Shown here piece by piece: positions 23,421 through 48,346 of a stretch of DNA of 64,000 bases. The notes under the pieces were generated by a model. The model was not told the DNA's origin, ran no database searches, and saw only the letters and a list, made by a program, of their open reading frames with translations. Location: the NCBI GenBank assembly GCA_965214705.1, contig OZ243972.1, positions 288,001 through 352,000 on the forward strand. Direction: 5' to 3'. Position 1 is the first letter of the stretch; the number at the start of each line of letters is the position of its first letter. The stretch comes from Alphaproteobacteria bacterium. Its GTDB lineage: Bacteria > Pseudomonadota > Alphaproteobacteria > UBA828. The position numbers and the translations under genes were made by a program.

Positions 23421-23598
23421 ACGGACAACGGATGGACACACATGCGCTAAGCTGCGTTGGAAACGACAGAAATATCATATATTCATTGAGTTACTGGAAA
23501 CCTCGCCCGAAACCAGCTCGACATAAGACACGCTACTATGCGCACCGGTTTTCTTTCAGGTGTTGATAATCGTGTTGCTCGGCGCTATGCTCCGCACC

Positions 23599-24831
23599 AT
23601 GAAAAATCAGAACCCCGGAAAACGCATCGCCAGGGTCAGGACCCACCTGACCAAGCGCGCCGTCGAGGCGCTCGAGCCCGGCGAGAAGTCCTGGATCGCC
23701 TGGGACGACCGCCTCACCGGCTTCGGTGTCCGTGTCCAGCCCTCGGGCACCAAATCCTTCATCGTCAACTACCGCCCCGGCGACGGCGGGCGCAAGGCGC
23801 CCAACAAGCGCGTCGTCATCGGACGCTTTGGCCGCATGGCCCCCGACGAGGCCCGGCGCAAGGCCCAGGACCTGCTCGGGCGTGTCGCCCGGGGCGAAGA
23901 CCCGGCCGGCGAGCGGTCGGAGGCGCGCGGCGTGCCGACGCTGGCCGAGGCTTTCGAGACTTACATGAGGGCCAATCCAAACCGGGCGGTCAACACCGTC
24001 AGGCTCTACCGCCAGAACCTGAGGGTCAATCTCGGGGACTGGCTGAAGCGTCCCCTCGACGGCATCTCGCGGCAAGACGTGGAGGACCGGTTCAACTTCA
24101 TCACCCGCAAACATGGCTGGGCGGGGGCGAACCAGACGCTTTCGATGCTGCGTTCGATCTACCGCCGGCCCTGCGTCGACCACGAGGGGTTGCGCAATCC
24201 CGTGGAGTTGTGGCTCGCGGCCGGCGGCCGCTTCCACCGCATGCGGCGGCGGCGGATCTCCGGTCCGGTCGAGGTGCTGCCGCGCTGGCGCGCGGGAATT
24301 GACGCGGTCGACCTCGATCCCGCGATCCGCGACATCTTCCTGATCGGGCTCTACACGGGCATGCGCATGGGCGAGGTCGTGTCACTACGCTGGGAGAGGG
24401 TGGACCTTGAGCGGCGCATTCTCAGGGTCGAGGAGACCAAGACCGGGGAGCCTCTGGAGCTTCCGGTGACCCGGCAGCTCGCCGCGATCTTCGAGCGCCG
24501 CCGGGCGCACGGCGGCGAGCCAAGTTCGGAGGCGGAGGGCTGGCTCTTCCCGGCCCCCAGGAAGGCCGCGTCGGGCCATGTCTCGCACCTTTCGCAGTTC
24601 TACCCCGACATCACCAAGGCCGCCGGAACCCGTTTCTGGTTTCACGGGCTGCGCAACGCCTTCATCACGGTGGCCGAGCGCGAGCTGATGCTGCCGCGCT
24701 CGCTGACCAAGCGGCTGGTCAACCACGCCCGCCCCCCCGACGTGACCGAGGGCTACGCTGCGGACTGGACCGTCGAACAGCTTCGCGAACCGGCACAGCG
24801 CGTTGCGGATCGGATTGACGAACTGATCTGA
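23599..24831 (+). CDS. Tyrosine integrase with N-terminal arm-binding domain
   Basis: LTKRAVEAL...WDDRLTGFGVRV..SGTKSF arm domain; catalytic R (TGMR), K (KTG), HGLR, H (VNH), Y (EGY). Confidence 0.95.
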   Translation: MKNQNPGKRIARVRTHLTKRAVEALEPGEKSWIAWDDRLTGFGVRVQPSGTKSFIVNYRPGDGGRKAPNKRVVIGRFGRMAPDEARRKAQDLLGRVARGEDPAGERSEARGVPTLAEAFETYMRANPNRAVNTVRLYRQNLRVNLGDWLKRPLDGISRQDVEDRFNFITRKHGWAGANQTLSMLRSIYRRPCVDHEGLRNPVELWLAAGGRFHRMRRRRISGPVEVLPRWRAGIDAVDLDPAIRDIFLIGLYTGMRMGEVVSLRWERVDLERRILRVEETKTGEPLELPVTRQLAAIFERRRAHGGEPSSEAEGWLFPAPRKAASGHVSHLSQFYPDITKAAGTRFWFHGLRNAFITVAERELMLPRSLTKRLVNHARPPDVTEGYAADWTVEQLREPAQRVADRIDELI

Positions 24832-25797: not shown

Positions 25798-25912
25798 AGT
25801 CTGCGTGATTAGGACAGCGAACCTGCGGGGAACGCACCCGTCCATGAGATGTGTGCATGGTGGATTTGGGAAAGGTGTCGATTCAATCGCACCGGGCAGC
25901 ATTCAAGAAGTC

Positions 25913-27073
25913 ATGAGATCGGTTTATCTCGACTATAACGGATCGACACCGCTTGATCCACGCGTGGCTGAAATCATGGTGCCGATTCTGATGGAGGGGA
26001 TCGGGAACGCATCGTCGATACACCGCTTCGGTCGCCAGCAGAGCGTTGCGGTCGATGAAGCCCGCGAACACGTTTGCGCCATGGTCGGGGGCCGCTCTGC
26101 CAACGTGGTGTTCACATCCGGCGCGACCGAGTCCAACAATCTGGCCCTCAGAGGGGCGGTGGAAGGCGCTCCTGTCGGCCGGCCCCGAATTCTGATTTCC
26201 GCAGTCGAACATGCATCGGTTCGACAGACTGCTCGGTGGCTCGAGGAGCGCGGAATGACGAACCTCGGGGTCATTCCCGTTACCCGAGGTGGCTTCGTCG
26301 ACCTTGATGCATTGGAATCTATAATCGGCACGGATGTGCTGCTGGTGTCGGTTATGGCGGCAAACAGCGAGACCGGTATACTGAATCCGGTGGAGAAGAT
26401 CGCCGAGCAGGCTCACGCCTTTGGCGCCCTGCTCCACTGCGATGCGACGCAGCTCGTAGGCCGATTGTCGTTCGATCTTGAACGGATCGGCGTTGACCTC
26501 GTATCGGTGAGCAGTCACAAGATATGTGGTCCGACCGGTGTCGGTGCACTCGTGGGCTCACGACGCGGCTTGCGGCGGCTGCAACCGATCATCCACGGTG
26601 GCGGGCACGAACACGGCTTGCGGTCGGGTTCGCTTAATGTTGCCGGCATCGCGGGTTTCGGCGCCGCCGCGCGGATAGCCACCGAAGAACGAACGCGTGA
26701 ATCGGCGCGAGTCGCGGAGGCGCGTGACCGATTGACCGCTGCGCTGAAGTCGCGGCTCACTGGTGTACACGAAGTCGGAGACGTCGCTCGGCGGCTCCCC
26801 AACACGGCCAACGTCCGATTTGAGGGTGCCGATGCGGAGGCAGTCGTAAGCAACATGGACCCTGTTGCCGTCTCGACAGGCAGTGCGTGCAGCTCTGGAT
26901 CGATTGAGCCCTCAGAGGTTCTACTCGCCATGGGCATCTCACGCGAATCAGCGTTCGAGACGGTCAGATTCAGTCTGGGCCGATTTACGACGACGGAAGA
27001 CATCAATCTCGCAGTGAATAAGACCGTCGACGCCGTGGAGCACGTTCGGAGCATGGCCAGGAGGAGTGCGTGA
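25913..27073 (+). CDS. sspA: Cysteine desulfurase (IscS/DndA/SspA-like)
   Basis: YLDYNGSTP, FTSGATESNN, HCDATQ, SSHK (PLP Lys), STGSACSS (catalytic Cys); TGATG-coupled to next gene; symbol assigned from context. Confidence 0.88.
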   Translation: MRSVYLDYNGSTPLDPRVAEIMVPILMEGIGNASSIHRFGRQQSVAVDEAREHVCAMVGGRSANVVFTSGATESNNLALRGAVEGAPVGRPRILISAVEHASVRQTARWLEERGMTNLGVIPVTRGGFVDLDALESIIGTDVLLVSVMAANSETGILNPVEKIAEQAHAFGALLHCDATQLVGRLSFDLERIGVDLVSVSSHKICGPTGVGALVGSRRGLRRLQPIIHGGGHEHGLRSGSLNVAGIAGFGAAARIATEERTRESARVAEARDRLTAALKSRLTGVHEVGDVARRLPNTANVRFEGADAEAVVSNMDPVAVSTGSACSSGSIEPSEVLLAMGISRESAFETVRFSLGRFTTTEDINLAVNKTVDAVEHVRSMARRSA

Positions 27074-28077
27074 TGCGTCCGCTCGACGCAGCCAAGCCGA
27101 TGTTCGCTCGGCACGAGACGTTTCATCCTCGCTATGGCTGGTTCAGGAAGGCCTACAGATTTGCAGCTGCAGATCCCCAAATCTTCAGCAGAGACGATGC
27201 ACCCGTGCGGATCGGGGTGGGCAAAAACATGGTCCGTGCGATTCGCTTTTGGGGGCTTGCTGCCAAGCTAATCGAGACGAAGGAGCGAACTTCCAACCTA
27301 CGGGTTTCCGAGTTGACTCCCACGTCCTTTGGCGAGGCGCTCTTCGGTAAGTCGGGGTGGGACCGATACATGGAGGATCCGGGGACACTTTGGCTCTTGC
27401 ACTGGTTGCTGCTGGCTCCTCCCTCGCTGTTGCCGGTGTGGTGGATTGCGTTCAACGACTTTCCCGCTGTGGAGTTCGACGACGACGATCTCGTGGCGGC
27501 AGTCACGACGCAGCTCGAGGCCATCGCGGAGTGGAATGTGCCCCATCCGTCGTCCGTGAAGAAGGATGTCGGCGCCATGCTGCGTACCTATGCACCGGCA
27601 GAGCGCGGCGGGCGCAACAGTATCGACGACATCCTGGATTGCCCGCTCCGCGAGCTGAACCTGATTGGCCGTTCGATCGGAACGAATCAATACCGGTTCG
27701 CGTTGGGAGCGAAGCCTAGCCTGCCGAGCGAGATCCTCGGTTATGCTGCCCTGGACTACTGTGTTCGTACTTCAACTGGAGGAAATACGGTCACGCTCGG
27801 TCGCCTTGCCCATGAGCCAGGCGCTCCTGGCAAGGTCTTCAAGTTGACCGAAGGCGAGTTTTATTCCGCAATCGAACCACTCGCGCGCGAAACGGATGCA
27901 ATTGCCCTGACGACGAGTACGGGAGGCGTTCAACTTTCCTGGTCAGGCAAGCCGAACGAAATCGCGACTGGGATTCTCGACCGGTACTATAGGTACTTCG
28001 TCTCTGACACCCGATCAGATCGTGCTGATCACGTCGACGCCCATTCGCCGCCGACCGTATCGGCGTTGGGGCCATAA
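27073..28077 (+). CDS. sspB: DUF4007-family protein (SspB-like)
   Basis: FARHETFHPRYGWFRK, IGVGKNMVRAIRFWG, DRYMEDPGTLWLLHW motifs typical of DUF4007. Confidence 0.85.
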   Translation: MRPLDAAKPMFARHETFHPRYGWFRKAYRFAAADPQIFSRDDAPVRIGVGKNMVRAIRFWGLAAKLIETKERTSNLRVSELTPTSFGEALFGKSGWDRYMEDPGTLWLLHWLLLAPPSLLPVWWIAFNDFPAVEFDDDDLVAAVTTQLEAIAEWNVPHPSSVKKDVGAMLRTYAPAERGGRNSIDDILDCPLRELNLIGRSIGTNQYRFALGAKPSLPSEILGYAALDYCVRTSTGGNTVTLGRLAHEPGAPGKVFKLTEGEFYSAIEPLARETDAIALTTSTGGVQLSWSGKPNEIATGILDRYYRYFVSDTRSDRADHVDAHSPPTVSALGP

Positions 28078-31000
28078 ATGGCCGTGCTTGCCGACCATAT
28101 CTCGGTTCTCGACCGTTTCGCCCGTTCGACGAATCTGGAGCGGGACGTAGACCGGCTTGAACCGCTCGATGGATACATCGTCACTGCACGTGCATTGGAT
28201 GTTGTCGAGCGCGTCGCTGGTACTGCCGTAGCGGGCGCGGCTGGGGGCGCGTGGTCGCTGACGGGCCCCTATGGTTCGGGCAAATCCTCCCTCGCCCTGT
28301 TGCTCGACGGTGCGTTTGGTCCCGCCGGCCCGACGCGAACACGCGCCTTGAAGTTGATCGATGAAACGTCACCGGCAGTGGGGGAGTCCATTCGGTGTGC
28401 CCATGAACGTTACCGCACGATGGATTCCGGATTCCAGCGCGGTCTGATTACCGCTAGCCGAGAGCCGATCGGCGACACGTTGCTTCGGGCACTTCAATCC
28501 GCGGTCCTCCGGCGATACGGCAAGCTTTCATCATCCGAAAAATTGCCGGCGGCCAACACGCTCAGGCGAGGAATTGACGACGCGGTGGAAAACAACCCGC
28601 ACAGAACCGGGCCCTCTGCGGTCGAAATAGTCGAAATCGCACGGTGCTTGGCAGAGAATTCGCCGCTGCTTCTGATCATCGACGAATTCGGTAAGAACCT
28701 GGAAGCGATCGGAGACAGCTCTGAAGCCGATCCTTATCTGTTGCAAATGCTTGCCGAGGCGGGACAGGGCTCGGGATTGCCCATTTTTTTGCTGACCTTA
28801 CAGCATCTGTCATTCGAGAATCATCTGACTGGTGTTGCGGCTCCTCGACGCCGTGAGTGGGCGAAAGTGCAGGGTCGATTCGAAGACATTGCCTATGTTG
28901 ACTCGTCCCGACAGTCCCGCGCGCTGATTGGAACTGTCTTCGCAGTCAGCAACGAGAACTTGCGGAAGCGGATCACTCGCTGGGCCCGACCCCACGCAAG
29001 GGCGATGCGATCGCTCGGCATAGCCGAAATGGCGGATCCGGAGGTCGTGGCCTCATGCTATCCCCTGCATCCTCTGGCCGCCATGCTTCTGCCGGAGCTC
29101 TGCAATCGCTACGGACAGCACGAACGGACGTTGTTCTCGTTCCTGGCCGGGCCGCACTCGGCTGGCGTTGCGTCCTTCCTTGCGAGCACCAAGCTACCGA
29201 GCCGCGGGGCGCTTCCGTCCCTCGGACTCGGAACCGTCTACGACTATTTCGTCTCCGGCGATGCGCAGGTGGAAATTGCATCGGATCGTCTGCGCCGATG
29301 GAACGAGATTGCCCTTCGGCTCCGCGATCTCCACGGCCTCTCCCCGCGAGAGACCCGTTTGGCAAAAGCCATTGCTCTGCTGAATCTGGTATCGGTCGGC
29401 GGAACCGTTCGGGCGTCTTCCGAGGTCCTGTCTCTCGTTGATGCCGATTCGGCCAATCTATTGGTGCGTCTCGATGCAGCGGGAGTTGTCACCTACCGGG
29501 AGTTTGCCGACGAGTACCGGATCTGGCAGGGGACGGACGTTGATATTCGTCGCCTCATGGAGCTTGCACGGCGGAAGGCAGGGCGGCAGTCGCTCTCCGA
29601 AATTCTTTCCGGCCTGGATGTGCCCGCGCCGGTAGTGGCCGCGCGACACAGCGCGAAGCACGATGTTTTTCGGGTGTTCGCCAGACGCTATGCTGACAGT
29701 GGCGAAGATGTCGAACCTCTGGATGCATTCGCTCCCTGTGACGGCGAAGTGCTGCTCGTCGTCGGAGCGGATCGGAGATTGCCGAAACTGGTCAGTCCGA
29801 CGGCGGCTGCCAAGCCGACCGTGGCGGCAATTCCGGATGACTTGACCGCACTCGACAGAGCTGGCCGAGAAATCGCTGCGGTCACCGTTGTATTGAATGA
29901 TCCTGTCGTCGAGTCCGATTGGGTGGCTCGGTGCGAACTCGCTGAGCGACTGGCGGAGTCTCAGGCCGCTCTTCGAGATGCCATGACCGTCACGTTCGGC
30001 GCTGGCGCATGCCAATGGGTCCTTATTGACGATTCTGGGGTGAGGGAGTTGCGCGCAGGACGAGGCAGCGCGGCATTGTCGGAGGCAGCCGATTTCGCGT
30101 ATCCGTTCACTCCGGCGGTCGGCAACGAAATGCTAAACCGGACTGACCTCACCTCCCAGGGTGCCAAGGCCCGACGTCGCCTGCTCGAAGCCATGATCGA
30201 ACGCCGTTCCGAGGCAAATCTAGGGCTTGAGGGCTACGGCCCGGAAGTGGCCATGTATCGCGCATTCCTGGCCAGGACGGGGCTCCACCTCCGTGTCTCC
30301 AATGGCGAAACCTATGATTTTGGCACACCAACAGACACATCGGTGCTTCCTGCCTGGAAGGCGCTGGAACGCGAATTCGCACGCGCCAAGACACTTCGTG
30401 TCAACCTCAAGGACATCCATGCCGTCCTCCTCCTGCCGCCGTTCGGAATGAAAGCGGCGATTGTTCCGGTGTTCGTGACGGCGGCGCTGCTCGCATTCAG
30501 AGATGAAATCGCGATCTACGAGCACGGGACCTTCAAACCGCTGCTGACTCCCGATCTGTCAGAACGGATGGTCCGAAACCCTAGCCACTTCGAGATCAAG
30601 CACTTCGCGAATGCCGCCGGAGCCCGTCGGCAAGTTGTCGACGCACTGGCAGAACGCCTCGGGGGGGTGACGCGGTTCGGCAAGCACAGGGTGGGGAATG
30701 TCCTTTCCGTGGTAGGTCTTATGGTGCATCAGGTCAGGAACCTCGACGGTTACACGCGGCGTACCCGCAATTTGGGAGCCGCCGCGCGAATGGTGCGGGA
30801 TGCGATCGGGATGGCAGTTGAGCCAGACGAGTTGCTTTTCGATGCCCTCCCGAGTGCTTTGGGATTCCGGCCCGTGCCGACCGACACGAAGACATATGCG
30901 AAGGCTTGCGAGTACGCCGATGGCGTGGGTGTCGCGTTTGACGAGCTCGCTGGATGCCATGACGAACTTCTCGCCGATCTCTTTCAGTTTCTCCTCGACA

Positions 31001-31548
31001 CAAGTGCGGAAAGCAGCCGACTCGCAGTGACCGGACAGGCGGCTGCCCTCGATAACGAAGTTCTAAACCCGTCAGTTAGAGCGTTTGTCAGAACGTTGGC
31101 CAATGACAGAGTTGATACGGATGCCGACTGGATCAGCGCCGTCGCCACGGTCGTGGCCGGGAAGGCTCCAATGGAGTGGGACGACGACGACCTGTCTCGT
31201 TTTCGCGGCGAGCTCCCCTTGGAAATTGCCGCCTTTCAGCGCCTTGTCGCGCTCCACGCCGAGCGACGGGCCGACGGCGGAGGCCCCTTCGACGCGCTGC
31301 GAGTTACCATCACCCGCCCCGATGGTAGCGAGCATGTTGGCTTGGTCGACATCGACCGACGCGAACGTGGCGTCGTAGACAAGGCCATTGGTGAAGTGCT
31401 GAAGGAGTTGGGCGAGACCATTGGTTCGCCTCATCGAGTCCACAAGGCATTGCTCGCCGCGCTCGGTGATCGGATTCTGTCCGAGCAGGCCAGAAGGGAG
31501 GATGAAGCGGTTCTTGTCCTCCCGAAAAGGAAATCTCGAAATGGATGA
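28078..31548 (+). CDS. sspC: Large P-loop ATPase (SspC-like)
   Basis: RSTNLERD N-terminus, Walker A GPYGSGKS, Walker B LLIIDEFGK, YPLHP; lies between DUF4007 and PAPS-reductase genes. Confidence 0.78.
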   Translation: MAVLADHISVLDRFARSTNLERDVDRLEPLDGYIVTARALDVVERVAGTAVAGAAGGAWSLTGPYGSGKSSLALLLDGAFGPAGPTRTRALKLIDETSPAVGESIRCAHERYRTMDSGFQRGLITASREPIGDTLLRALQSAVLRRYGKLSSSEKLPAANTLRRGIDDAVENNPHRTGPSAVEIVEIARCLAENSPLLLIIDEFGKNLEAIGDSSEADPYLLQMLAEAGQGSGLPIFLLTLQHLSFENHLTGVAAPRRREWAKVQGRFEDIAYVDSSRQSRALIGTVFAVSNENLRKRITRWARPHARAMRSLGIAEMADPEVVASCYPLHPLAAMLLPELCNRYGQHERTLFSFLAGPHSAGVASFLASTKLPSRGALPSLGLGTVYDYFVSGDAQVEIASDRLRRWNEIALRLRDLHGLSPRETRLAKAIALLNLVSVGGTVRASSEVLSLVDADSANLLVRLDAAGVVTYREFADEYRIWQGTDVDIRRLMELARRKAGRQSLSEILSGLDVPAPVVAARHSAKHDVFRVFARRYADSGEDVEPLDAFAPCDGEVLLVVGADRRLPKLVSPTAAAKPTVAAIPDDLTALDRAGREIAAVTVVLNDPVVESDWVARCELAERLAESQAALRDAMTVTFGAGACQWVLIDDSGVRELRAGRGSAALSEAADFAYPFTPAVGNEMLNRTDLTSQGAKARRRLLEAMIERRSEANLGLEGYGPEVAMYRAFLARTGLHLRVSNGETYDFGTPTDTSVLPAWKALEREFARAKTLRVNLKDIHAVLLLPPFGMKAAIVPVFVTAALLAFRDEIAIYEHGTFKPLLTPDLSERMVRNPSHFEIKHFANAAGARRQVVDALAERLGGVTRFGKHRVGNVLSVVGLMVHQVRNLDGYTRRTRNLGAAARMVRDAIGMAVEPDELLFDALPSALGFRPVPTDTKTYAKACEYADGVGVAFDELAGCHDELLADLFQFLLDTSAESSRLAVTGQAAALDNEVLNPSVRAFVRTLANDRVDTDADWISAVATVVAGKAPMEWDDDDLSRFRGELPLEIAAFQRLVALHAERRADGGGPFDALRVTITRPDGSEHVGLVDIDRRERGVVDKAIGEVLKELGETIGSPHRVHKALLAALGDRILSEQARREDEAVLVLPKRKSRNG

Positions 31549-32389
31549 TACGGTTCGCCACATCTGCGGTATCTCGGGAGGCAAGGACTCCAGCGCACTC
31601 GCCGTCTACCTGCGGGACAAGGTGCCAGGGATGGAGTATTTCTTCTGTGATACTGGCGCGGAACTTCCCGAGACGTATGAGTATCTGACCCGTCTCGAAG
31701 TGATTCTTGGCAAGCCAGTCATTCGACTGAACGCCCAGCGTGGCTTCGATCACTGGTTCGAGGTCTTTCGCGGGGCATTACCCTCTCCCCAGATGCGATG
31801 GTGTACCAAGAACATGAAGATCAAGCCGATCGAGGCGTGGATCGGCGACGCACTCGCTCTCTCCTATGTTGCGATCCGCGCCGACGAGTCGAATCGGAAG
31901 GGCTACATTTCTACGAAGCCAAATATCAGAACCCGCTTCCCTTTTATCGAGGACGGAATCGATCGCGATGGAGTAACCCAGATCCTCGAAGAAGCCGGTA
32001 TCGGCCTACCGACCTACTACGACTGGAGGACGCGATCGGGCTGCTACTTCTGCTTCTATCAACGCAAGGCCGAATGGGTCGGTCTCGCTGATCGGCATCC
32101 TGAGTTGTTTCGGCGTGCGGTCGCCATCGAGCGGAAGGTGTTGCGAGACGCCGGTGTTGACGGCGATGCCGATTTCCGCAGCCAAGCCATGCGGGGTCGC
32201 CAGTACACTTGGTCCAGCGGGGAGACCCTCACGGAGCTGCTGTCCCGTCGGATCGAGATTCTTGAGCGGCATGAGGCTGCTAAGTCTCGTGCAGCCAAAG
32301 TGCCGGCGAACGTCCCGCTGATCGAAATACTCACTGAAGCACTCGACGAGGACGACGACACCATACCCTGCACCGTGTGCGCATTGTGA
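31541..32389 (+). CDS. sspD: PAPS-reductase-family PP-loop protein (SspD-like)
   Basis: SGGKDS PP-loop, DTGAELPE, RWCT, RSGCYFCFYQ, terminal CTVC; overlaps upstream stop. Confidence 0.88.
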   Translation: MDDTVRHICGISGGKDSSALAVYLRDKVPGMEYFFCDTGAELPETYEYLTRLEVILGKPVIRLNAQRGFDHWFEVFRGALPSPQMRWCTKNMKIKPIEAWIGDALALSYVAIRADESNRKGYISTKPNIRTRFPFIEDGIDRDGVTQILEEAGIGLPTYYDWRTRSGCYFCFYQRKAEWVGLADRHPELFRRAVAIERKVLRDAGVDGDADFRSQAMRGRQYTWSSGETLTELLSRRIEILERHEAAKSRAAKVPANVPLIEILTEALDEDDDTIPCTVCAL

Positions 32390-34008
32390 GCGGTATGGCG
32401 GTGGCGCCGCCCGGCGGACCGGGGCTCTCAGTTGCCCGGTTTCTCGATTCGCTCCCGGATCGAGATCTCAGAAGATTCTTGGAACCTGGTGTCCTGTCGG
32501 TGTTGGACGCACTCTTCGGCGGCCGTATAGACGGCGAGGATCTGCGGCGAGTCGCTCGGACCTTGGTCGATTTCGATATCCTGCTCGGAGAGCCAAATGG
32601 TCGGAAGCTTGTCCTAAGCCTCGTTCCTGATGAAAAGCGCGCCGAGTTGGAGGCCCGCGTCGGGCGGATCATCGCGGCGAGTCGCGTGAGCGAGTGGTCC
32701 GAATCGGAGGTACGCCGGCTCCGCGACTTCTTCGGTCTGGTCGAGGAGCGGATCCTGCCCCCGCCGACGCCATCCACGGACACGATCACCCCGGTCTACG
32801 GCCTGTTCGATCATCAGAGGAACGCCGTGTGCAGGCTGGCGCCGTTGCTGGCCGAGGATGAACGCCGAGCCGTTCTTCATCTGCCGACCGGGGTCGGAAA
32901 GACACGGACAGCCATGCACGTGGTGGCGGAAACTTTGCGAGCTAACGAGCCGTCAGTCGTGGTTTGGCTGGCCTCCGGCAAGGAGCTGCTGGAGCAGGCG
33001 GTTGTGGCGTTCAAGGAAGCCTGGATGCACTTAGGAGCGAGGCAGCTCCAAATCGGAACCATGTGGGGCGACCGAATGCCGGATCTTGATCGCTTATCCG
33101 ACGGGTTTCTCGCGGTCGGGCTCGCAAAGGGCTGGGCGGCGATCTCGCGCACTGATCCAGATTGGGCAGTTCGGCTATCTCGACGGGTCCGGCTGGTAGT
33201 CTTCGACGAAGCCCACCAGAGCATCGCCAGAACCTATCGGCGGATCACCGAGGAGCTCACGCTGGACTTCAGGTGCGCGCTGCTGGGCCTCACTGCGACG
33301 CCGGGGCGGACATGGGCCGATATCGACAAAGACGGTGAGCTTGGCGAGTTTTTCGCCGGAAACAAGGTGACACTCGAAGTCCCCGGCAAGAATCCCATCG
33401 AATACCTCATCGAGAACGGATTCTTAGCACGGCCAAGCTTCCGGACACTCCTTTCGCGGCCCGGGCTCGTATTCAGTGAAGAGGAGCTTGCCCGCATCGC
33501 CGGAGGGTTGGACATTGCAGAAGAGATCGTGGTGGCCTTGTCGATGAGCGAGCAGTACGTGGCCGCGGTTCTGGATGCCGTCAACGAGTTGCTCGACGCT
33601 GGGCACAGGCGAGTGCTCGTCTTCGCCGCCACGGTGGACCACGCGCGGATATTGAGCGCGATTCTCGTCGCACGTGGCGTGCTCAGCAATGTGGTCACAG
33701 GTCTGACACCCGGGCGTGCGAGAGAGCACGCCATCAGGGCCTTCAGGTCCGATGACGACGTACCCATGGTCCTGGTCAACTTCGGCGTATTGACTACAGG
33801 GTTCGACGCCCCCAAGGCTAGCGCAGTCGTCATCGCCCGTCCCACTCGGTCCTTGGTGTTGTTTAGTCAAATGGTCGGTAGGGCAATTCGAGGTCCCAAG
33901 GCCGGTGGGACCGAGGCATGCGAAGTCGTAACCGTCGTCGATCCGAATCTGCCGGGTTTTGGCGATGTGGCGGCAGCGTTTCTGAACTGGGAGGACGTAT
34001 GGCAGTGA
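32386..34008 (+). CDS. SF2 DEAH-box helicase (ResIII-like)
   Basis: LPTGVGKT, DEAH, LTATP, LTTGFDAP, QMVGRAIRG; GTGA overlap with upstream gene. Confidence 0.93.
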   Translation: MSGMAVAPPGGPGLSVARFLDSLPDRDLRRFLEPGVLSVLDALFGGRIDGEDLRRVARTLVDFDILLGEPNGRKLVLSLVPDEKRAELEARVGRIIAASRVSEWSESEVRRLRDFFGLVEERILPPPTPSTDTITPVYGLFDHQRNAVCRLAPLLAEDERRAVLHLPTGVGKTRTAMHVVAETLRANEPSVVVWLASGKELLEQAVVAFKEAWMHLGARQLQIGTMWGDRMPDLDRLSDGFLAVGLAKGWAAISRTDPDWAVRLSRRVRLVVFDEAHQSIARTYRRITEELTLDFRCALLGLTATPGRTWADIDKDGELGEFFAGNKVTLEVPGKNPIEYLIENGFLARPSFRTLLSRPGLVFSEEELARIAGGLDIAEEIVVALSMSEQYVAAVLDAVNELLDAGHRRVLVFAATVDHARILSAILVARGVLSNVVTGLTPGRAREHAIRAFRSDDDVPMVLVNFGVLTTGFDAPKASAVVIARPTRSLVLFSQMVGRAIRGPKAGGTEACEVVTVVDPNLPGFGDVAAAFLNWEDVWQ

Positions 34009-35183
34009 GCACATCCGGGGTCCAACTGAGCTTTTCCATCATTGATTCCGAAATGACGGTCAAGGCGATGCGTGACAGCGGTTACAAGTCCACGACGCAT
34101 GCGCTGGCTGAACTCATCGACAACTCGATCGAGAGTAACGCGACGGCTGTCGAGGTGTTCGGAACCAGTCGCAGGGATGCCCGCACCGGAAGATTCACCC
34201 TCACGACGTTGGCGGTCCTCGACAACGGTGAGGGCATGAATGGCGACACCCTGCGAGGGAGCCTTCGCTATGGTCACGGTACCCGCCGTGAGCGGAGAGG
34301 TATCGGCCGTTTCGGTCTGGGTCTTCCCAACTCCTCGATGTCGCAAGCGAAACGAGTGGATGTGTGGTCGTGGCAATCGGGTGCCACGAACGCTCTTCAC
34401 ACGCACCTGTCCCTTGACGAGGTGGAGGCCGGAGCGAGAGAGATTCCGGAGCTGGAACGGCTGGAGATCCCGAGCGTTTTTCGCGAAGCGAGCCGCTGCG
34501 TGTTCGGCGACTCTGGCACCCTCGTGGTGTGGAGCGACCTCGATCGTGTCGAATGGAAGCAGGCATCCACGACGTTTAAGCACACCGAGTTACTGATTGG
34601 GCGGATGTATCGGCGCTTCCTGGCGAAACAATCAGAACGTCTACATCGGGATGATCCGAGGGAATCTGAGATCGGATCACGACGCACCATCACCTTGATT
34701 CCCATTCGGGAAGACGGAGAAGTAACTAAAGTTCAGGAGGATGAAATTGTTGAGGTGAGGCCAAACGATCCCTTGTATCTAATGACAAGCACGTCTTGCC
34801 CGGAGAGCTTTGGCCCCGGCCCCATGTTCACGGAGCTTGAGGGAAGTCCGTTCCAGGTACCCGTGAGGTACCAGGGACGGGACTTCGAGGTTCGCGTTCG
34901 GGCGAGCTATGCACGCGCACACGTCCGGGATTCTTCCGCGCCCGAGGCAGATTGGCCCGAAGAGTGGGTCGGCAAGGACGCGGGACGCGCTCCGTGGGGA
35001 AAACATGCGGATCAGAACATGGGGGTCTCGCTGGTTCGGGCGCACCGAGAGATTCAGCTCGATGATTCCTGGGTCAGTGGCGACGACCCGAGAGAACGCT
35101 GGTGGACCGTGGAAGTCGACTTTCCGACAGCACTCGACGAAGTGTTCGGCGTGACCAACAACAAGCAGGGCACAATGACCTTT
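33999..35183 (+). pseudogene. GHKL/MORC-like ATPase, 5' part (interrupted)
   Basis: ALAELIDNS, DNGEGM, GIGRFGLGL, GTLV Bergerat-fold motifs; LDEVFGVTNNKQ just before the insertion. Confidence 0.9.
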
Positions 35184-35412
35184 GAACGAAGCCGCTACGC
35201 GGAGTTAGCGGCGTAGAGTTCATTCATTTCCGAGGCGTCGCGGGTGCCGTTTGTTCTGTGCGTTCGCTTCCCGGTTGCGTCAGTGGCGCTCCGCCCGTCG
35301 GGTGGCGGATCCCCAGCAGCCTCCCGATCACCAGTGGTTAGTATCGACCCCTGCGACGGACCGTCGCCGGATCGGTCCGGCGGCGCGCCGTCGCGATCCA
35401 GGGAGATCGATA

Positions 35413-36291
35413 ATGACCGGGACCGCGTGCGACACGAACACCGTCACCCCTCTTCGCCAGCGCATGGAGGAGCAGCTCCGCATCGCCAATCTGGCCGCGA
35501 GCACGTCCAAGGCCTACATCTGCGAGATCAAGAACCTGGCCAGGTACTACGACGCCTCGCCGGACGAGCTCGACGCCGAGCAGGTGCGCCAGTGGTACCT
35601 GGGGCGGATCGACAAGGGGCTCAGTCCGGGCACGACCAACGTCTCCTTCGCCGCGCTGAACTTCCTCTACATCGACACACTCGGCTGGCCTGACCATGTC
35701 GCCGGCCTGCGCTCCCGCAAGAAGCCCGGCAAGCTGCCGCGCTACATGTCGGAGCAGGAGGTCGAGCACCTCATCCTTGCGACACCCGACCTCCGCCACC
35801 GTGCTGCCATTGTCACCGGCTATGGCGGCGGGCTCCGCATCTCCGAGACCTTGGCCATCAAGGTCGGCGACATCCTGTCGGAGAAGAAGCTGCTGCACAT
35901 CCCCTCCGGCAAAGGCGGCACCGAGAGAATGGCACCGTTGCCGGACATCGTCATCCACTACTTGCGCGTCTACTACAGGAACATCTGGCCGCGTCCGACG
36001 AGCTGGCTCTTCTACGGCGTCTCGCTCGACAGGCCCATCGCAACGGAGACCTTGCAGGCCGCCTTCAGGAGGGCGCGCGACATTGCCGAGCTCGACCGCA
36101 GCTACACCTTCCATTGCCTGCGCCATTCGGCGGCGACCCATCTCCTCGAGCGCGGCGGCGATATCGAGGTGATCCGGGACATGCTCGGCCATCGAAGCGC
36201 GAACACGACCCGTCACTACGCCCGCGTCACCGGCAAGATGTTCGAGGGCCTCGACCACCCGATCTCAGGCTTCGCAGCGTTGCGCAACTGA
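35413..36291 (+). CDS. Tyrosine recombinase associated with IS91-like transposase
   Basis: TPLRQRM N-terminus, GLRISE, GKGG, HCLRHSAATHLLE, LGH, TTRHY. Confidence 0.93.
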   Translation: MTGTACDTNTVTPLRQRMEEQLRIANLAASTSKAYICEIKNLARYYDASPDELDAEQVRQWYLGRIDKGLSPGTTNVSFAALNFLYIDTLGWPDHVAGLRSRKKPGKLPRYMSEQEVEHLILATPDLRHRAAIVTGYGGGLRISETLAIKVGDILSEKKLLHIPSGKGGTERMAPLPDIVIHYLRVYYRNIWPRPTSWLFYGVSLDRPIATETLQAAFRRARDIAELDRSYTFHCLRHSAATHLLERGGDIEVIRDMLGHRSANTTRHYARVTGKMFEGLDHPISGFAALRN

Positions 36292-36297
36292 CGGCGC

Positions 36298-37539
36298 GTG
36301 GAGGCCGAACGCGCGGGCGTGGCGGAGATCTTCCGCCGCGCCGGCGCCGCTTTCCGTGAGCGCCACAAAGGGCGCATCGACGCCGCCCGGCTCAAGGTCA
36401 TGGGCGCCATCGAGGCGTGCCGCACCGCCGTGCTCGGCGGCCACATGTACGCCTGCGAGGGCTGCGGGCGCGAGCATCCGCTCTTCAACTCCTGCCGCAA
36501 CCGCCACTGCCCCACCTGCCAGGGTCTCGCCGCCAACCTCTGGAGCGAGGAGCGCGCCGGGGACATCCTGCCGGTGCCCTACTTCCATGTGGTCTTCACC
36601 CTGCCCAAGGAGGTTGCCGCCATTGCCTTCTGCAACCGCAGGGTGGTGTTCGACATCCTCTTCCGGGCCGTCGCCGAGACCCTGCGCACCATCGCCGCCG
36701 ATCCCCGCCACGGCGGCATGCGCATCGGCGGCACCGCGGTCCTCCATACCTGGGATCAGAAGCTCCGCTTCCACCCGCACCTGCACGTGGTCGTGCCCAA
36801 CGCGGGCTTCGACGTAGACAGTGGCGAGTGGAAGACGGGGAGCACCACCTTCCTCGCCCCCGTCAAGGTCCTCGGCAGCCTGTTCCGCCGCCTCTTCCTC
36901 GAGGAGCTCGCCCGCGCCCACGGCCGGGGGGACCTGGAGTTCCACGGCACCCTCGCCCACCTCGCCAATCCCGGCGAGTTCCACGCCACGCTTGCCGCCG
37001 CCCGGGCCAGGGACTGGGTGGTCTACGCCAAGCGGCCCTTCCGCGGGCCTGAGCAGGTCTTCCGGTACCTCTCGCACTACACGCACAGGATCGCCATCTC
37101 CGACAGCCGCATCGTCTCCTTCGACGGCGAGACGGTCTCCTTCCGCCACCGAAAGCCCAAGGCGCCGGGGCAGAGAAAGCCGCGCTACGGCATCGCCACC
37201 GTGAGCGCCGACGAGTTCATCCGCCGCTTCCTGAGGCACGTCCTGCCGGACGGCATGCACCGCATTCGCTACTTCGGCATCCTCGCCAACGGCTGCCGCG
37301 CCAGCACGCTGGAGAGAGCACGCCAGGCTCTCGGCGCCCTCGGCTGCGCCGCCCCCGAGGGAAGCGTGGACGGCGCTCGGGCCGAGCCCGACGAAGAGCC
37401 CGAGATCGGCACCGCGCCCGTGGCCTGCCCCCACTGCGGCGGCGTCATGCGCCTCGTCCGCGAAATCCGCCGCCGCCATGAGCCCCGCTCGACGCGCGGC
37501 CCGCCGGCGCTGCCGCCGACCCACAGGGGGAAACCGTGA
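36298..37539 (+). CDS. IS91-family rolling-circle transposase
   Basis: Zn-binding NSCRNRHCPTC, YFHVVFTLP, HUH motif HPHLH, YLSHY (Y2), HRIRYFG. Confidence 0.95.
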   Translation: MEAERAGVAEIFRRAGAAFRERHKGRIDAARLKVMGAIEACRTAVLGGHMYACEGCGREHPLFNSCRNRHCPTCQGLAANLWSEERAGDILPVPYFHVVFTLPKEVAAIAFCNRRVVFDILFRAVAETLRTIAADPRHGGMRIGGTAVLHTWDQKLRFHPHLHVVVPNAGFDVDSGEWKTGSTTFLAPVKVLGSLFRRLFLEELARAHGRGDLEFHGTLAHLANPGEFHATLAAARARDWVVYAKRPFRGPEQVFRYLSHYTHRIAISDSRIVSFDGETVSFRHRKPKAPGQRKPRYGIATVSADEFIRRFLRHVLPDGMHRIRYFGILANGCRASTLERARQALGALGCAAPEGSVDGARAEPDEEPEIGTAPVACPHCGGVMRLVREIRRRHEPRSTRGPPALPPTHRGKP

Positions 37540-37801
37540 GACGCCCGCTCGCTTCGGCCCCGCGCAACGGCGCCAAAGCGCCGACGCACGACCGAACCTG
37601 TCTCCGCTTGAGCCGGGCTGACAGCCCTCGGCTCACACCCCGCTCAGTCCTCGCAGCGTGCGCCCGCATGCCTGCCGAAAGACCGGCGCGAGCGTCGATT
37701 TTATGCGCAACTCTGCTGCCGGTGGATGCCGCCTGACGCTGACATCAGCGCACTTTCCACATAGCTCAACTTCGCCTCTCGTGGCCCGCGGCTTCGTTCA
37801 A

Positions 37802-37843
37802 AAGGGTTGGGCAGGCTCTCTCTCGAGAGCCTGCCCAACCCTT
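37802..37843. repeat. 19-bp perfect hairpin at the IS91-like right end
   Basis: AAGGGTTGGGCAGGCTCTC-tctc-GAGAGCCTGCCCAACCCTT. Confidence 0.9.
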
Positions 37844-37849
37844 AACCTT

Positions 37850-38605
37850 CAGCGTCTTGCCCGGTTTGACTGGAAAAGAGAATCGCTTCCCGATGAGGAA
37901 TCGAGCGGTGATGTTCGCCGCCGGATGGAAGAAGAGGGAGATCACCGAAGCTACCTTCTGGATCTTCGCAAACAGATCACGAACGCGATCGAGCTACTCC
38001 GGCCTCGGTCCCGCCAAGCCAAGCAACCCCGTGGTAAGCGACACGTTCTCGATGAAGATCAGAAGGCCGACGCCAAGGCGACCGCTGCAATAACGCGCCG
38101 AATGCAAGAGGGCCACGAAGGCGAGTCCGACAAGGCGGGCGAATCAGGCTCCGCGGAGGAACAACGGGAAGCGCAAGTCGAATCCCTCACTGAGAAACAT
38201 CATTTCGACCAGACGGACGCGCTGCAGGAAATTGATGAGACGATTCGGGCGGGAAACCGCGTACGCTGGATCCAATCGGCGCAGTCCAGTCCTGCGTTCT
38301 TCGACGTCGAATCGTTGCCCAATGTGATTCAGGTCGCTCTCAACACGGACCATCCGGTGCACTCGCACCTCTACGACATCATGCATCCAGATGTCGAGGA
38401 CATGACCGACGACGAGGTTCGGGAACGACTCGCGCGAGCCGCCGCGGCGTTCCGCATCCTCATTTATTCGTGGGCACGCTACGAGGACGAGCAGACCGAA
38501 CGGGACCGCCGCCGGGTCCGAAACGCCCGGTTGGAGTGGGGTAAGTACGCGGAGGAATTCTTCGACGAGGATGACGATTCGGTTCCCCCGACGGATCTCG
38601 TATAG
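37850..38605 (+). pseudogene. GHKL/MORC-like ATPase, 3' part
   Basis: QRLARFDW...LNTDHP...WARYEDE continues in frame once the IS is removed; no start of its own. Confidence 0.85.
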
Positions 38606-38614
38606 GAATTCGTC

Positions 38615-39526
38615 GTGGCCGGCAGTGATCGTGATACTCAAGGTGCCCGAATCCGGGCCCTCTTCGAGCGTGCAGACGGCGAGGTCGCTGTGATTGCGCC
38701 ATTCATGAAGGTCGACGCACTGCGCTCTCTGCTCGAAGTCATCCCCGCCGATTTGCATCTGCGTTGCGTCTCCCGCTGGCTTCCGAAGGAAATCGCCGCC
38801 GGAGTCTCGGACCCGGAAATCCTGGATCTGCTTGAGGCGCGTGGCAACTTCAGTCTCTTCCTCGTGGACCGGTTGCACGCAAAGCTCTACATCGCCGGTG
38901 ACCGGTGTTTCGTGGGTTCGGCCAACGTTACCCATGCCGGGCTTGGAGAAGGCGGTGATGGCGGCAATATCGAGGTCCTCGTCGAGTCGACGGTCAACAA
39001 CCCTGGAGTCGCGGCTACGCTTAAGGAGATCGCTCAAGCTGGGCGAGAAGCGACAAGGAGCATGGCGCGGACGGCTCGGCGGCTTGCCGACAGCCTTGCC
39101 GATTCGACGAGACCTGCGGTTGCGCCTGATGTCCCCTGGTTTCCCAGGAGTCGCCGTCCCGAGCAGGCGTACGGCTTCTATGCGCAGCCGCCGAACGGTT
39201 TCGTAGGCGCGGCCGATCACGTTCTTATCGCGGACTTGGCAGGCTCAAATCTACCACCGGGTCTCAACGAGCAGGAGTTTAAGGATGCGATTCGAGAGTT
39301 GCTTGCCGCTATACCACCCGCCGAAATCCTCCTTGAAGGTTCGGGGGACATGACGCTTACCCGAGCCGACGCGAGTTCCTGGTTGGAGACGGTCACCGGA
39401 GATGATTTCTCCACCAACGACTTGTGGATTGCGTTCGTCAACTGGATGGTGTGTTTCTTTCCTGACTGGGTCATGAAACAGGAGATATCGGAGGTCGCCC
39501 TCCGGCGCGCCCGGTTGCTGGGCTAG
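38615..39526 (+). CDS. Phospholipase-D (HKD)-family nuclease-like protein
   Basis: IAPF, single LHAKLY...GSAN motif; 9 bp after the GHKL stop. Confidence 0.85.
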   Translation: MAGSDRDTQGARIRALFERADGEVAVIAPFMKVDALRSLLEVIPADLHLRCVSRWLPKEIAAGVSDPEILDLLEARGNFSLFLVDRLHAKLYIAGDRCFVGSANVTHAGLGEGGDGGNIEVLVESTVNNPGVAATLKEIAQAGREATRSMARTARRLADSLADSTRPAVAPDVPWFPRSRRPEQAYGFYAQPPNGFVGAADHVLIADLAGSNLPPGLNEQEFKDAIRELLAAIPPAEILLEGSGDMTLTRADASSWLETVTGDDFSTNDLWIAFVNWMVCFFPDWVMKQEISEVALRRARLLG

Positions 39527-47973: not shown

Positions 47974-48346
47974 CGGAACGACGATTTCAGGCTGGGTGCG
48001 GACGCGGAGCCGCTCAGTCGCCCGGCCCTCGGCTTTCCGCGCGGCTTCGAGATCGCTCGTGTTTGTCGTCGGTTAGGCTCGCAACCGCGCCGTTGACGGG
48101 CCGAAGTCTGGCGTGCAGGGAATCGTCGGGGGTGCATGGCTTGGGTTGATATCGGAGCGATTGTTCACGAGTATCGTAGCACCCAATCCGTGCGGCGATG
48201 AGCCCGCCGTTCGAAGGCGCGATCACGCGGCACGGCGCCAGAAGGAGCGACGTCGGGTCCAGGTCCGGGGTGAGTTTCGTCCCATCGCAGGACCCGGCTT
48301 GCGTCGCCAGGCGGCTGGAGCTTCGCTGAACGATGCCGCGAACGGT

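Follow-up and report, generated by a model that had tools for sequence, protein, structure and literature searches.

The window, a 64,000-nt stretch of alphaproteobacterial DNA, carries seven genes that probably make up a phosphorothioate (PT) restriction-modification system, with an SF2 helicase, a MORC-like GHKL ATPase and an HKD/PLD-family nuclease as a restriction arm that is probably inactive in this genome. This trio looks like a PT partner not described before, one that would cut foreign DNA lacking the marks, and conserved synteny strongly supports its link to PT genes. The cluster is arranged as follows.

25913..27073, + strand: sspA, cysteine desulfurase (PADLOC SspA E 3.5e-128, profile positions 1-374 of 374; Pfam Aminotran_5 E 8.7e-72)
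27070..28077, + strand: sspB, DUF4007 protein (Pfam DUF4007 E 3.4e-84; PADLOC SspB E 7.6e-104)
28078..31548, + strand: sspC, large BrxC-like ATPase of 1156 aa (PADLOC SspC E 8.2e-302, profile positions 2-1104 of 1104; BrxC E 1.1e-87)
31541..32389, + strand: sspD, PAPS-reductase-like, sulfur-inserting (PADLOC SspD E 4.8e-107, profile positions 1-276 of 277; Pfam PAPS_reduct E 8.3e-08)
32377..34008, + strand: SF2 helicase/translocase of 543 aa (Pfam ResIII E 4.1e-19, DEAD E 1.9e-13, Helicase_C E 7.7e-13)
33999..35183, start possibly up to 33918, + strand: MORC-like GHKL ATPase, N-terminal piece with the ATPase and an S5-like middle domain (Pfam HATPase_c_3 E 2.8e-19)
35184..37849, + strand: IS91-family insertion of 2,666 bp that splits the GHKL gene (homology break and transposase match)
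37850..38605, + strand: MORC-like GHKL ATPase, C-terminal piece of ~251 aa, mostly helical (tblastn to locus L001)
38615..39526, + strand: HKD/PLD-family nuclease of 303 aa (H-x-K...G-S-x-N motif, Foldseek)

The original prediction of seven tightly coupled genes was borne out: all seven are on the + strand at the positions listed, overlapping or at most 9 nt apart. By their coordinates, sspA (ATG at 25913, within an ORF spanning 25754-27073) overlaps sspB by 4 nt, sspB abuts sspC, sspD overlaps the helicase gene by 13 nt and the nuclease gene follows the GHKL gene after a 9-nt gap. The sspC/sspD overlap is 8 nt when sspD is read from ATG 31541, a start taken from the ORF translation, and that of the helicase and GHKL genes is 10 to 91 nt according to which GHKL start is used. 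Full-length PADLOC matches to SspA, SspB, SspC and SspD also confirmed the identification of the first four genes as the SspABCD machinery, with an SspA desulfurase and adjacent, co-oriented SspB, SspC and SspD. From family membership, SspABCD is predicted to write PT marks on host DNA. The gene arrangement is far from chance, since the same order recurs across 56 independent loci.

Each member of the trio was compared with known families and structures. The helicase has GVGKT and FDEAHQS motifs that are invariant among the aligned helicases (alignment A1), and its profile matched RadD (6jde, E 3.9e-24) and SauUSI (7clg, E 4.8e-11) in the PDB. Its N-terminal domain (residues 1-135) reached a best score of 0.77 in the ESM Atlas, below the level of a lead. 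The GHKL profile matched MORC2 (E 9.2e-14), and the model of an intact homologue resembled the ATPase modules of SMCHD1 and MORC2 over 437-477 aligned columns. The C-terminal GHKL piece is 93% identical by tblastn to L001 at 12802-13560, which lies inside one 646-aa ORF, and the GHKL family comprises 1,222 clusters (50% identity) at E <=1e-30. The nuclease model (pLDDT 92.2) has a C-terminal helical domain finishing in a beta-hairpin; its top Foldseek matches were SauUSI (E 2.2e-06), Zucchini, the NgoAVII R-protein, NucT, Nuc and BfiI, and by sequence its match to SauUSI was marginal (E 8.6e-04). The Bergerat-fold residues E38, D41, N42, D75, G77, G79, G103, G106 and G108 of the GHKL protein and residues H88, K90, S102, N104, N118 and E120 of the nuclease were each invariant in 34 sequences. 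These conserved active-site residues suggest that the GHKL family and the nuclease are catalytically competent. Fused forms of the trio were sought because a fusion would have backed a physical complex; a search of longer proteins, in itself weak evidence, gave one weak match, and there was none in the best 150 GHKL relatives. No sulfur-binding or PT-sensing domain of known type was detected in the trio with Pfam, PADLOC or NCBIfam.

We collected 56 loci with no other query than two peptide patterns of the helicase. In 55 of the 56, the helicase and GHKL genes are coupled (overlapping or <=9 nt apart), and a single GHKL ORF of 616-711 aa is present in 54. A nuclease match by tblastn was obtained in 54 loci, and in 49 of them the nuclease gene begins <=40 nt from the GHKL end. 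The gene after GHKL differs from the PLD nuclease in L044 and L052. A PAPS-reductase-type PT gene was found nearby in 51/56 loci: SspB, SspC and SspD together in 43, SspC and SspD only in one, SspD at a contig edge in one, dndC by itself or together with dndD and dndE in four, and PDC-M33ABC with an SspD-like gene in two. No such gene was found in the other five loci, and the contig ends at the trio in four of these. Among plasmids, the trio occurs in at least 10 of 71 SspD-bearing records, and it adjoins ssp-type genes in all 12 of the best matches, which are all from cultured bacteria. This neighbourhood survey upholds the conservation of the trio beside PT genes. The trio is not a partner of Ssp alone, as it also follows dndC(DE) and the PDC-M33 plus SspD-like module. 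Its proposed role as a replacement for SspE holds in the window, which has no SspE-type gene, but fails as a strict rule: 16 of the 56 relatives have an extra DUF262 or DndB-like gene pair of a kind that the window lacks. These extra genes could be the real PT sensor, which would count against our preferred explanation. Culturable hosts of the trio include Roseobacter litoralis, Pannonibacter phragmitetus, Trichormus variabilis ATCC 29413, Mesorhizobium onobrychidis and Hymenobacter, and RefSeq labels its proteins generically as 'DEAD/DEAH box helicase', 'ATP-binding protein' and 'phospholipase D family protein'.

The SspBCD partners of the trio fall in two deeply divergent lineages. Within one close trio clade (helicase >=61% identical), SspC is 55-84% identical in 23 loci and 24-29% identical in 12. 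Partner type changes 10 times on the helicase tree against a minimum possible of 3, and at least 4 to 6 of these changes are required by branches with good support. Identity within Ssp lineages exceeded that between them by 2.7 to 6.4 points for every trio segment; the helicase N-terminus and the nuclease C-terminus were the most variable parts, and no part of the trio co-varied sharply with the Ssp lineage. The trio is a portable cassette that has repeatedly joined differing PT-writing modules.

Whether this combination had already been described was left open in the original prediction. When checked against profile libraries, the trio matched no described system, and its matches in PADLOC v2.0.0, NCBIfam and Pfam were weak and at domain level. 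The weak PADLOC v2.0.0 matches of the window trio and its intact homologues were to the helicase part of PbeA, MzaB, ZacB/DrmC and Type I/IV enzymes; in NCBIfam, dnd_restrict_1 gave 34.5 bits with the trio proteins against a cut-off of 600. Membership of the trio in Pbe, Mza, DISARM, Azaca or Dpd was rejected because the PADLOC scores are weak and the NCBIfam matches lie far under their cut-offs. A literature search, which had the supplementary tables of PMC8092258 and PMC10853773 outside its scope, did not turn up any paper that places the trio next to ssp or dnd genes.

The SspABCD-SspE and SspABCD-SspFGH systems share with this cluster the same modification module and the same logic, in that a single cluster also holds an effector module downstream. 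SspE, however, combines a DUF262 NTPase with a C-terminal nuclease and is unrelated to the trio. The window ORFs scanned with Pfam and PADLOC had no match to GmrSD_N/DUF262, SspE or DndB, and a tblastn of the window with the relatives' DUF262 and DndB-like proteins found nothing at E 1e-8. SspF, SspG and SspH are described as having no recognisable domains except a Walker A motif in SspF and an FtsK/SpoIIIE-like C-terminus in SspH (PMC8092258). These descriptions separate them from the trio, which has clear ResIII/DEAD/Helicase_C, HATPase_c_3 and PLDc domains and no FtsK-type match.

PbeABCD, which accompanies DndCDEA, is likewise PT-associated and has both a ResIII/SF2 helicase and an HKD/PLD nuclease. 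The PADLOC PbeA profile matched the helicases at E 5.8e-17 to 3e-19, covering only positions 251-435 of 672 (E 5.8e-17), and there was no PADLOC match to PbeB, PbeC or PbeD in the trio. PbeA is reported to carry the PLD domain and the helicase in one polypeptide, PLD first (PMC6459918, PMC10853773), whereas the trio nuclease is a separate gene; PbeABCD also needs a CxC ABC ATPase (PbeC), the DndE-like PbeD and the small PbeB, and has no GHKL protein. Both PbeA/PbeC and the trio flank one dndCDEA in the Haloarcula locus L042. DISARM and Mza showed partial resemblances: DrmC/ZacB weakly matched the nuclease (PADLOC E 3.8e-10 to 9.2e-08; NCBIfam DrmC 17.7-19.3 bits vs 133) and MzaB weakly matched the GHKL domain (PADLOC E 4.4e-14; NCBIfam 65-66 bits vs 850). 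No DrmA, DrmB or other Mza component was found.

The MORC/paraMORC-SFII helicase-nuclease operons (Iyer, Abhiman and Aravind 2008) have the same layout as the trio: an SFII helicase and a DNase beside a GHKL ATPase that carries an S5-like domain. Such restriction operons are reported to combine MORC-type ATPases with nucleases and SFII helicases; they are highly mobile, and DNA looping or clamping between the recognition and cut sites is predicted for them (PMC2292703). As described there, these operons accompany DNA methylases, whereas the trio accompanies PT writers and its HKD nuclease is a separate gene; the words 'dnd' and 'PAPS' are absent from the text of PMC2292703. Among the window ORFs scanned, none matched a methyltransferase, and the PT writers stand in that place. 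SauUSI (PDB 7CLG) and the R and N proteins of NgoAVII/CglI are ATP-dependent restriction enzymes that pair a PLD-family nuclease with an SF2 helicase-like motor. SauUSI is a modification-dependent enzyme, and the nuclease and ATPase of NgoAVII are separate subunits. SauUSI is one polypeptide with a target-recognition domain, whereas the trio is encoded by separate genes with GHKL between them, and GHKL subunits and PT partners are absent from both SauUSI and the NgoAVII/CglI enzymes. The nearest analogues of the trio are SauUSI, PbeA, NgoAVII and the MORC-helicase-nuclease operons of Iyer et al. 2008.

At the DNA level the window is homologous to three intact loci up to 35182 and again from 37845-37850, and the reading frames agree with an insert at 35184-37849. 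The insert contains the following features.

35251-36291: tyrosine recombinase (Pfam Phage_integrase E 6.7e-33)
36298-37539: IS91-family transposase (NF033538 382.5 bits vs a cut-off of 125; Pfam Y2_Tnp E 2.7e-54, Zn_Tnp_IS91 E 4.3e-30)
37802-37843: 19-bp perfect hairpin

The transposase is of the IS91/Y2 HUH type with an N-terminal zinc-binding domain, which places the element in the IS91 family. It is present in a single copy within the window, has a GC content of 0.684 vs 0.58-0.62 in the cluster genes, and carries terminator-like sites inside its ends. Since plasmid matches were limited to its transposase gene (~67% identity, 36-39% coverage), the element is no known named copy. The trio module of the window is probably dead, because the insertion splits the GHKL gene and parts the nuclease gene from the upstream genes. 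A host-derived IS91-family element has probably silenced the restriction arm in this way and left SspABCD as a solitary modification module. The trio is also disrupted in loci L039, L034, L005 and L024.

We infer the function, complex formation and PT sensing of the trio, and propose that it is an ATP-dependent restriction module governed by PT marks. SspABCD would place PT on the cell's own DNA. The SF2 helicase would translocate along DNA, fuelled by ATP. Gating or positioning of the nuclease would fall to the MORC-like GHKL ATPase, working as a dimeric clamp or switch powered by ATP. The HKD/PLD protein may dimerise as single-HKD nucleases do, and would nick or cut DNA without the PT pattern. 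SspABCD together with SspE or SspFGH is reported to provide phage defence (PMC8092258), and the GHKL ATPase of VcSduA has been proposed to control a nuclease (PMC12137116). Several of the observations weigh against this proposal: no PT-sensing domain of known type was detected in the trio, no trio segment follows the Ssp lineage closely, no PT gene shows upstream in L048, and another gene comes after GHKL in L044 and L052.

The likeness to SauUSI fits attack on modified DNA equally well and counts against the proposal that unmarked DNA is cut. The trio might then be an autonomous, SauUSI- or Type IV-like ATP-dependent restriction enzyme against modified or foreign DNA, merely travelling with PT genes in defence islands. 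Both the nuclease and the helicase profiles match SauUSI 7clg, PADLOC gave a weak Type IV methyl-directed match (E 2.3e-12), and the cassette swaps partners; moreover, L048 has no PT gene within 10 kb upstream (its contig stops inside the GHKL gene), and a C5-methyltransferase adjoins the trio in two loci, L044 and L051 only. Co-residence in islands, however, would not by itself preserve one neighbour, and a PT writer of one of at least three kinds is in operon-like contact with the trio in 51 of 56 loci. The ssp-type neighbours of all 12 best plasmid matches, and the position of the trio inside the ssp operon of Trichormus variabilis plasmid A, between the sspD/dndB and cysteine desulfurase genes, point the same way and make an autonomous enzyme unlikely.

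The repeated disruption of the trio, in the window and the four loci named above, is what would be expected of a costly, self-harming module, and Rakesh et al. propose self-targeting for HKD-helicase effectors beside Dnd genes (PMC10853773). The trio could then be a PT-guarded suicide or addiction module that hits host DNA upon PT failure or phage disturbance and kills the infected cell instead of restricting the phage itself. Any restriction arm with an autoimmune cost would suffer such disruptions, though, no infection sensor is recognisable, and SspE and SspFGH are reported to target phage DNA (PMC8092258); we regard this explanation as improbable. A helper that opens, nicks or repairs DNA for PT installation or PT-related damage, rather than a defence effector, seems very unlikely. 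RadD, a repair helicase, is indeed closest to the trio helicase in both NCBIfam (NF053632, E 1.5e-32) and the PDB (6jde), and the GHKL protein is of the MutL/MORC class. The RadD score is nonetheless 112.7 bits against a cut-off of 720, IscS and SspBCD reportedly sufficed for PT in E. coli (PMC8092258), most sspBCD loci have no trio, as the plasmid counts given above indicate, and loss of GHKL is tolerated in the window, where sspABCD is intact.

The trio is a concrete candidate restriction partner for sspBCD loci. Neither SspE nor SspFGH was reported in 83.9% of 2,678 such loci (PMC8092258), which may be orphan epigenetic systems or may have partners yet to be recognised. One cassette serves Ssp-, Dnd- and PDC-M33-type writers and therefore could reveal writer-independent reading of the backbone sulfur mark. 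It could also show the role of a MORC-type ATPase in a nuclease complex, and it would close a gap in defence annotation, given the generic labels that its genes have today. More tentatively, and with somewhat more doubt than confidence, we suggest that the trio is a third, unnamed and widespread class of PT-dependent restriction, a universal reader or effector for Ssp, Dnd and PDC-M33 writers that is at least as common on plasmid-borne ssp loci as SspE or SspFGH. It might then be the first MORC-type GHKL ATPase under a DNA-backbone mark, a prokaryotic counterpart of the eukaryotic MORCs on epigenetically marked chromatin.

The cluster lies in a region of lower GC content, which drops from ~0.70 to ~0.60 beyond position 23000. 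Two further genes belong to this context.

23560..24831, + strand: tyrosine integrase, located where the lower-GC island begins on the left (Pfam Arm-DNA-bind_3 E 1.2e-16, Phage_integrase E 6.1e-13)
42256..45234, + strand: TrwC-type relaxase/helicase (Pfam TrwC E 6.3e-84, AAA_30 E 4.9e-45)

No tRNA and no flanking direct repeat was found at the island ends. The seven-gene cluster probably resides on a horizontally acquired island, which looks mobilisable given its TrwC-type relaxase.

The seven tightly coupled genes of the original prediction were confirmed in order and spacing; judged from their coordinates, no gap between neighbouring genes exceeds 9 nt, and some overlap or abut. The cluster and its best profile matches are as follows.

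25913-39526, plus strand: seven-gene cluster of sspA, sspB, sspC, sspD, helicase, GHKL (in two pieces) and PLD-like genes
Start ATG 25913 within ORF 25754-27073, plus strand: SspA (PADLOC E 3.5e-128, profile positions 1-374 of 374; Pfam Aminotran_5)
Plus strand: SspB (PADLOC E 7.6e-104; Pfam DUF4007)
Plus strand: SspC (PADLOC E 8.2e-302, profile positions 2-1104 of 1104)
Plus strand: SspD (PADLOC E 4.8e-107, profile positions 1-276 of 277; Pfam PAPS_reduct)
32377-34008, plus strand: SF2 helicase (Pfam ResIII, DEAD and Helicase_C)
Plus strand, split in two: GHKL ATPase (Pfam HATPase_c_3 E 2.8e-19)
38615-39526, plus strand: PLD-like protein of 303 aa (weak PLDc matches; clear H-x-K...G-S-x-N motif)

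Full-length PADLOC profile matches to all four of the first genes bear out their assignment to the SspABCD phosphorothioate (PT) machinery. ATG 25913 opens the usual desulfurase N-terminus and had been correctly chosen as the sspA start. The helicase, GHKL and nuclease genes (the trio) fitted no described system in PADLOC and HMM searches: PADLOC v2.0.0 returned weak domain-level matches only, and NCBIfam scores were far below the cut-offs. RefSeq and other sources give all three proteins generic names.

Relatives of the helicase comprised 4,122 proteins at E ≤0.001 among 8,000 candidates examined, with 73-94% identity in the 120 relatives listed. Loci were surveyed with two helicase peptide patterns in one genome per species. 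Of the 123 stretches that matched, 56 encoded a relative, giving 56 distinct loci (L001-L056) whose record titles span many bacterial phyla and some archaea. In 55 of the 56 loci, the GHKL gene overlapped the helicase gene or followed it by no more than 9 nt; the exception was L039, which has an insertion in the helicase gene. A single GHKL ORF of 616-711 aa was present in 54 loci; it is broken in L034 and runs off the contig in L048. Of the 54 loci with a tblastn nuclease match, 49 had a nuclease start no more than 40 nt from the end of the GHKL gene, the exceptions being L005 and L024 (both with insertions), L034, L044 and L052. A PLD-like ORF 9 nt after the GHKL gene of L046 was recognised by PADLOC alone.

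PT-modification genes (PT writers) beside the trio, counted within the sequence available around each locus
SspB, SspC and SspD: 43 loci (42 by tblastn, L045 by PADLOC)
SspC and SspD only: 1 locus (L055)
SspD at the contig edge: 1 locus (L037)
dnd genes: 4 loci (L042, dndC-D-E-A; L046, dndC-D-E; L051, dndC-D; L044, dndC)
PDC-M33A/B/C and an SspD-like PAPS reductase: 2 loci (L054, L056)
No partner seen: 5 loci (L003, L035, L052, L007, L048)

The neighbourhood survey thus placed the trio beside SspB/C/D homologues at 43 of the 56 loci, and a PAPS-reductase-type PT gene was present at 51. At the loci without one, the sequence begins less than 170 nt before the helicase (L003, L035 and L052) or at a DndB-like gene (L007); in L048, no PT genes were found in the 10 kb upstream, and the contig ends inside the GHKL gene. 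The ssp genes lie on the opposite strand to the trio in L027, L028, L030, L038 and L047. Collectively, these comparative genomic results support the proposal that the trio is a putative effector for Ssp and broaden it, in that the cassette is predicted to serve Ssp, Dnd and PDC-M33-type writers. The coupling to PT genes stands; the pairing is not confined to Ssp, and in the window the cassette is broken and its function is a prediction only.

PDC-M33 is a PADLOC candidate system. Its A, B and C proteins are encoded directly upstream of the SspD-like PAPS reductase and the trio (L054, 5734-9996; L056, 4423-9999), and in L054 a single 543-aa ORF joins PDC-M33C to the PAPS reductase. This arrangement and the fusion suggest that PDC-M33, too, is a modification module, of the sulfur or PT type. 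In L042 (Haloarcula terrestris, 56-14482), dndC-D-E-A lies between PbeA and a PbeC-like gene on one side and the trio on the other. Since Pbe genes and the trio flank the same dnd genes, one Dnd writer may serve two different effector modules there.

The cassette has changed partners. Within the clade of helicases that share 61% identity or more with the window helicase, SspC identity was 55-84% in 23 loci and 24-29% in 12. A helicase tree was built from 56 rows (the window and 55 loci, L039 omitted; six rows had no partner label) by a quick IQ-TREE search with SH-aLRT support only. Four partner labels required 10 changes on this tree against a minimum possible of 3, the label 'SspC at most 31%' being set relative to the window and possibly itself mixed. 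Shuffled labels required a mean of 20.7 changes, and none of 200 shuffles was as low as 10. Well-supported branches imply a minimum of 4 changes for one Ssp group and of 6 for the other; for example, L012 falls within a clade of full support that also contains L013 and L018, and the sister of L010/L014 is L004.

The trio was also found on plasmids of cultured hosts, where the 12 best helicase matches in the plasmid collection had E ≤4e-49. Six of these records were examined (Roseobacter litoralis pROLI83, Trichormus variabilis ATCC 29413 plasmid A, Pannonibacter phragmitetus BB, Hymenobacter sp. GOD-10R, Mesorhizobium onobrychidis and Treponema saccharophilum). In all six, the helicase, an 'ATP-binding protein' and a 'phospholipase D family protein' lay by DUF4007 and a large ATPase or hypothetical gene; a PAPS reductase was annotated in five, the Treponema record having a class-V aminotransferase instead. 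On the Trichormus plasmid, sspD/dndB lies on one side of the trio and a cysteine desulfurase gene on the other. Plasmid p.BB_2 of P. phragmitetus BB has sspA, sspBCD, helicase, ATPase and PLD genes, and its cluster is intact, as are those of pROLI83 and Trichormus plasmid A. In the reverse survey, 71 plasmid records had an SspD relative at E ≤1e-20. At least 10 of the 71 (10 of the 60 listed) were helicase records, all within the 12 best, with 0.5-9.3 kb between helicase and SspD. For 2,678 sspBCD loci, PMC8092258 gives SspFGH beside 7.3%, SspE beside 7.4% and neither beside 83.9%.

An extra gene pair adjoining the ssp genes and the trio was present in 16 of the 56 relatives and absent from the window and its nearest relatives. 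In nine loci (L004, L010, L014-L017, L020, L028 and L030) it encodes a DUF262/GmrSD_N protein (PADLOC NsnA, E 5e-29) and an unassigned ~240-aa protein; in six (L008, L009, L022, L023, L029 and L034) it encodes a GIY-YIG-like and a DndB-like protein; L007 has a hybrid form. These pairs may add sensing or regulation.

The helicase profile matched the solved structures of RadD (6jde, E 3.9e-24) and SauUSI (7clg, E 4.8e-11). Its GVGKT and FDEAHQS motifs are invariant, and no domain assignment was found for its first ~135 residues. The GHKL profile matched MORC2 best (E 9.2e-14), with Bergerat-fold residues invariant in 34 sequences. A model of the intact GHKL protein of L001 (pLDDT 84.5) aligned with MORC2 ATPase modules over 444-477 columns (rmsd 6.9-8.5), with SMCHD1 ATPase modules over 437-453 columns (rmsd 7.8-8.6) and also with Hsp90; ~250 mostly helical residues follow the ATPase module. 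The GHKL family has 8,836 representatives at E ≤0.001 and 1,222 at E ≤1e-30, and the 150 best relatives are stand-alone proteins of 364-663 aa. The nuclease model (pLDDT 92.2) was closest to SauUSI (E 2.2e-06), then to Zucchini, the NgoAVII R-protein, NucT, Nuc and BfiI. Residues H88, K90, S102, N104, N118 and E120 are invariant, and the classical D of the HKD motif is not conserved. Nuclease residues 146-303 are modelled as a helical domain ending in a helix-helix-hairpin, a secondary structure compatible with a winged-helix DNA-binding domain. Across the trio, no segment showed a sharp correspondence with the Ssp lineage; variability was highest in the helicase N-terminus and nuclease C-terminus.

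The analysis shows that the four modification genes belong to the Ssp families and that the coupling between the trio and PT writers is conserved. In the mechanism that we propose, SspABCD would mark host DNA, the helicase would translocate, a GHKL dimer would clamp DNA or switch the nuclease on, and a PLD dimer would nick or cut DNA without the PT mark. We rate the cluster as a PT-based restriction-modification system on a recognised MORC-helicase-nuclease theme; if this reading is true, the trio is a new restriction module. Iyer et al. 2008 (PMC2292703) described restriction operons with methylases in which MORC/paraMORC ATPases occur together with SFII helicases and nucleases, whereas the partners of the trio are PT writers; 'dnd' and 'PAPS' do not occur in the accessible text of that paper. 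PbeA differs in that one polypeptide carries the PLD, ResIII and helicase parts and acts together with an ABC ATPase and a DndE-like protein (PMC6459918 and PMC10853773). 'MORC' and 'GHKL' are absent from the main texts of the Dnd reappraisal (PMC10853773) and the BREX survey (PMC12839542). The literature searched contains no description of the trio beside ssp or dnd genes, and the trio may be listed outside it.

In relatives, the GHKL protein is one ORF, for example of 646 aa (L001) or 673 aa (L005). DNA homology to three intact relatives ends at 35182 in the window and restarts at 37845-37850. An insert at 35184-37849 (2,666 bp) fits the reading frames of the two GHKL pieces, and the pentamer ACCTT at 35178-35182 is repeated at 37845-37849. 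The insert encodes a tyrosine recombinase (Phage_integrase, E 6.7e-33) and an IS91-family transposase (NF033538, 382.5 bits against a cut-off of 125) and contains a perfect 19-bp hairpin at 37802-37843. One copy is present in the window. Its GC content of 0.684 is near the host value, unlike the island, which suggests that the element entered after the island arrived. Because the N-terminal piece reads ten codons into the element before a stop and the element ends carry terminator-like sites, the ATPase is truncated and the nuclease gene is severed from the upstream genes.

Disruptions in or beside the cassette arose independently in other genomes, and mobile elements strike the cluster repeatedly: insertions or breaks lie at 11047-12844 in L039, 13557-14847 in L005, 13635-16377 in L024, 6673-8115 in L015, 7421-8983 in L021 and about 10197 in L034. 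Among them are transposases of the Mutator (L024), IS66 and DDE types, a helicase gene with an interruption and a GHKL gene that is cut short. Disruption of the trio in the window, L039, L034, L005 and L024 is consistent with a module whose upkeep is costly.

The cluster genes have a GC content of 0.58-0.62 against 0.70-0.72 in the flanks, with a tyrosine integrase gene (23560-24831) at the left edge of the island and a TrwC relaxase gene (42256-45234) further right, indicating that the island was acquired and is probably mobilisable. No tRNA genes were found anywhere in the window, and no direct repeat flanking 23000-45234. A second lower-GC segment (0.59-0.65) lies at 45000-49000, just after the relaxase, and could be further island cargo. 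It contains an ORF at 45670-47973 (767 aa) with a weak AAA_22 match and nothing else, and one at 48113-48955 (280 aa) without a match in Pfam, PADLOC or NCBIfam. A near-identical direct repeat lies at 49607-49724 and 51336-51452, its copies ~1,729 bp apart and each made of a 21-nt block followed by a 90-nt block (99% identity); between them, on the minus strand, is a gene with a YAcAr/SLOG domain (50056-50982). Just outside the island, in host-GC sequence, are genes for a RecD2-type helicase (16941-18989) and a Fic/DOC protein with a DUF4172 N-terminal domain (20344-21450).
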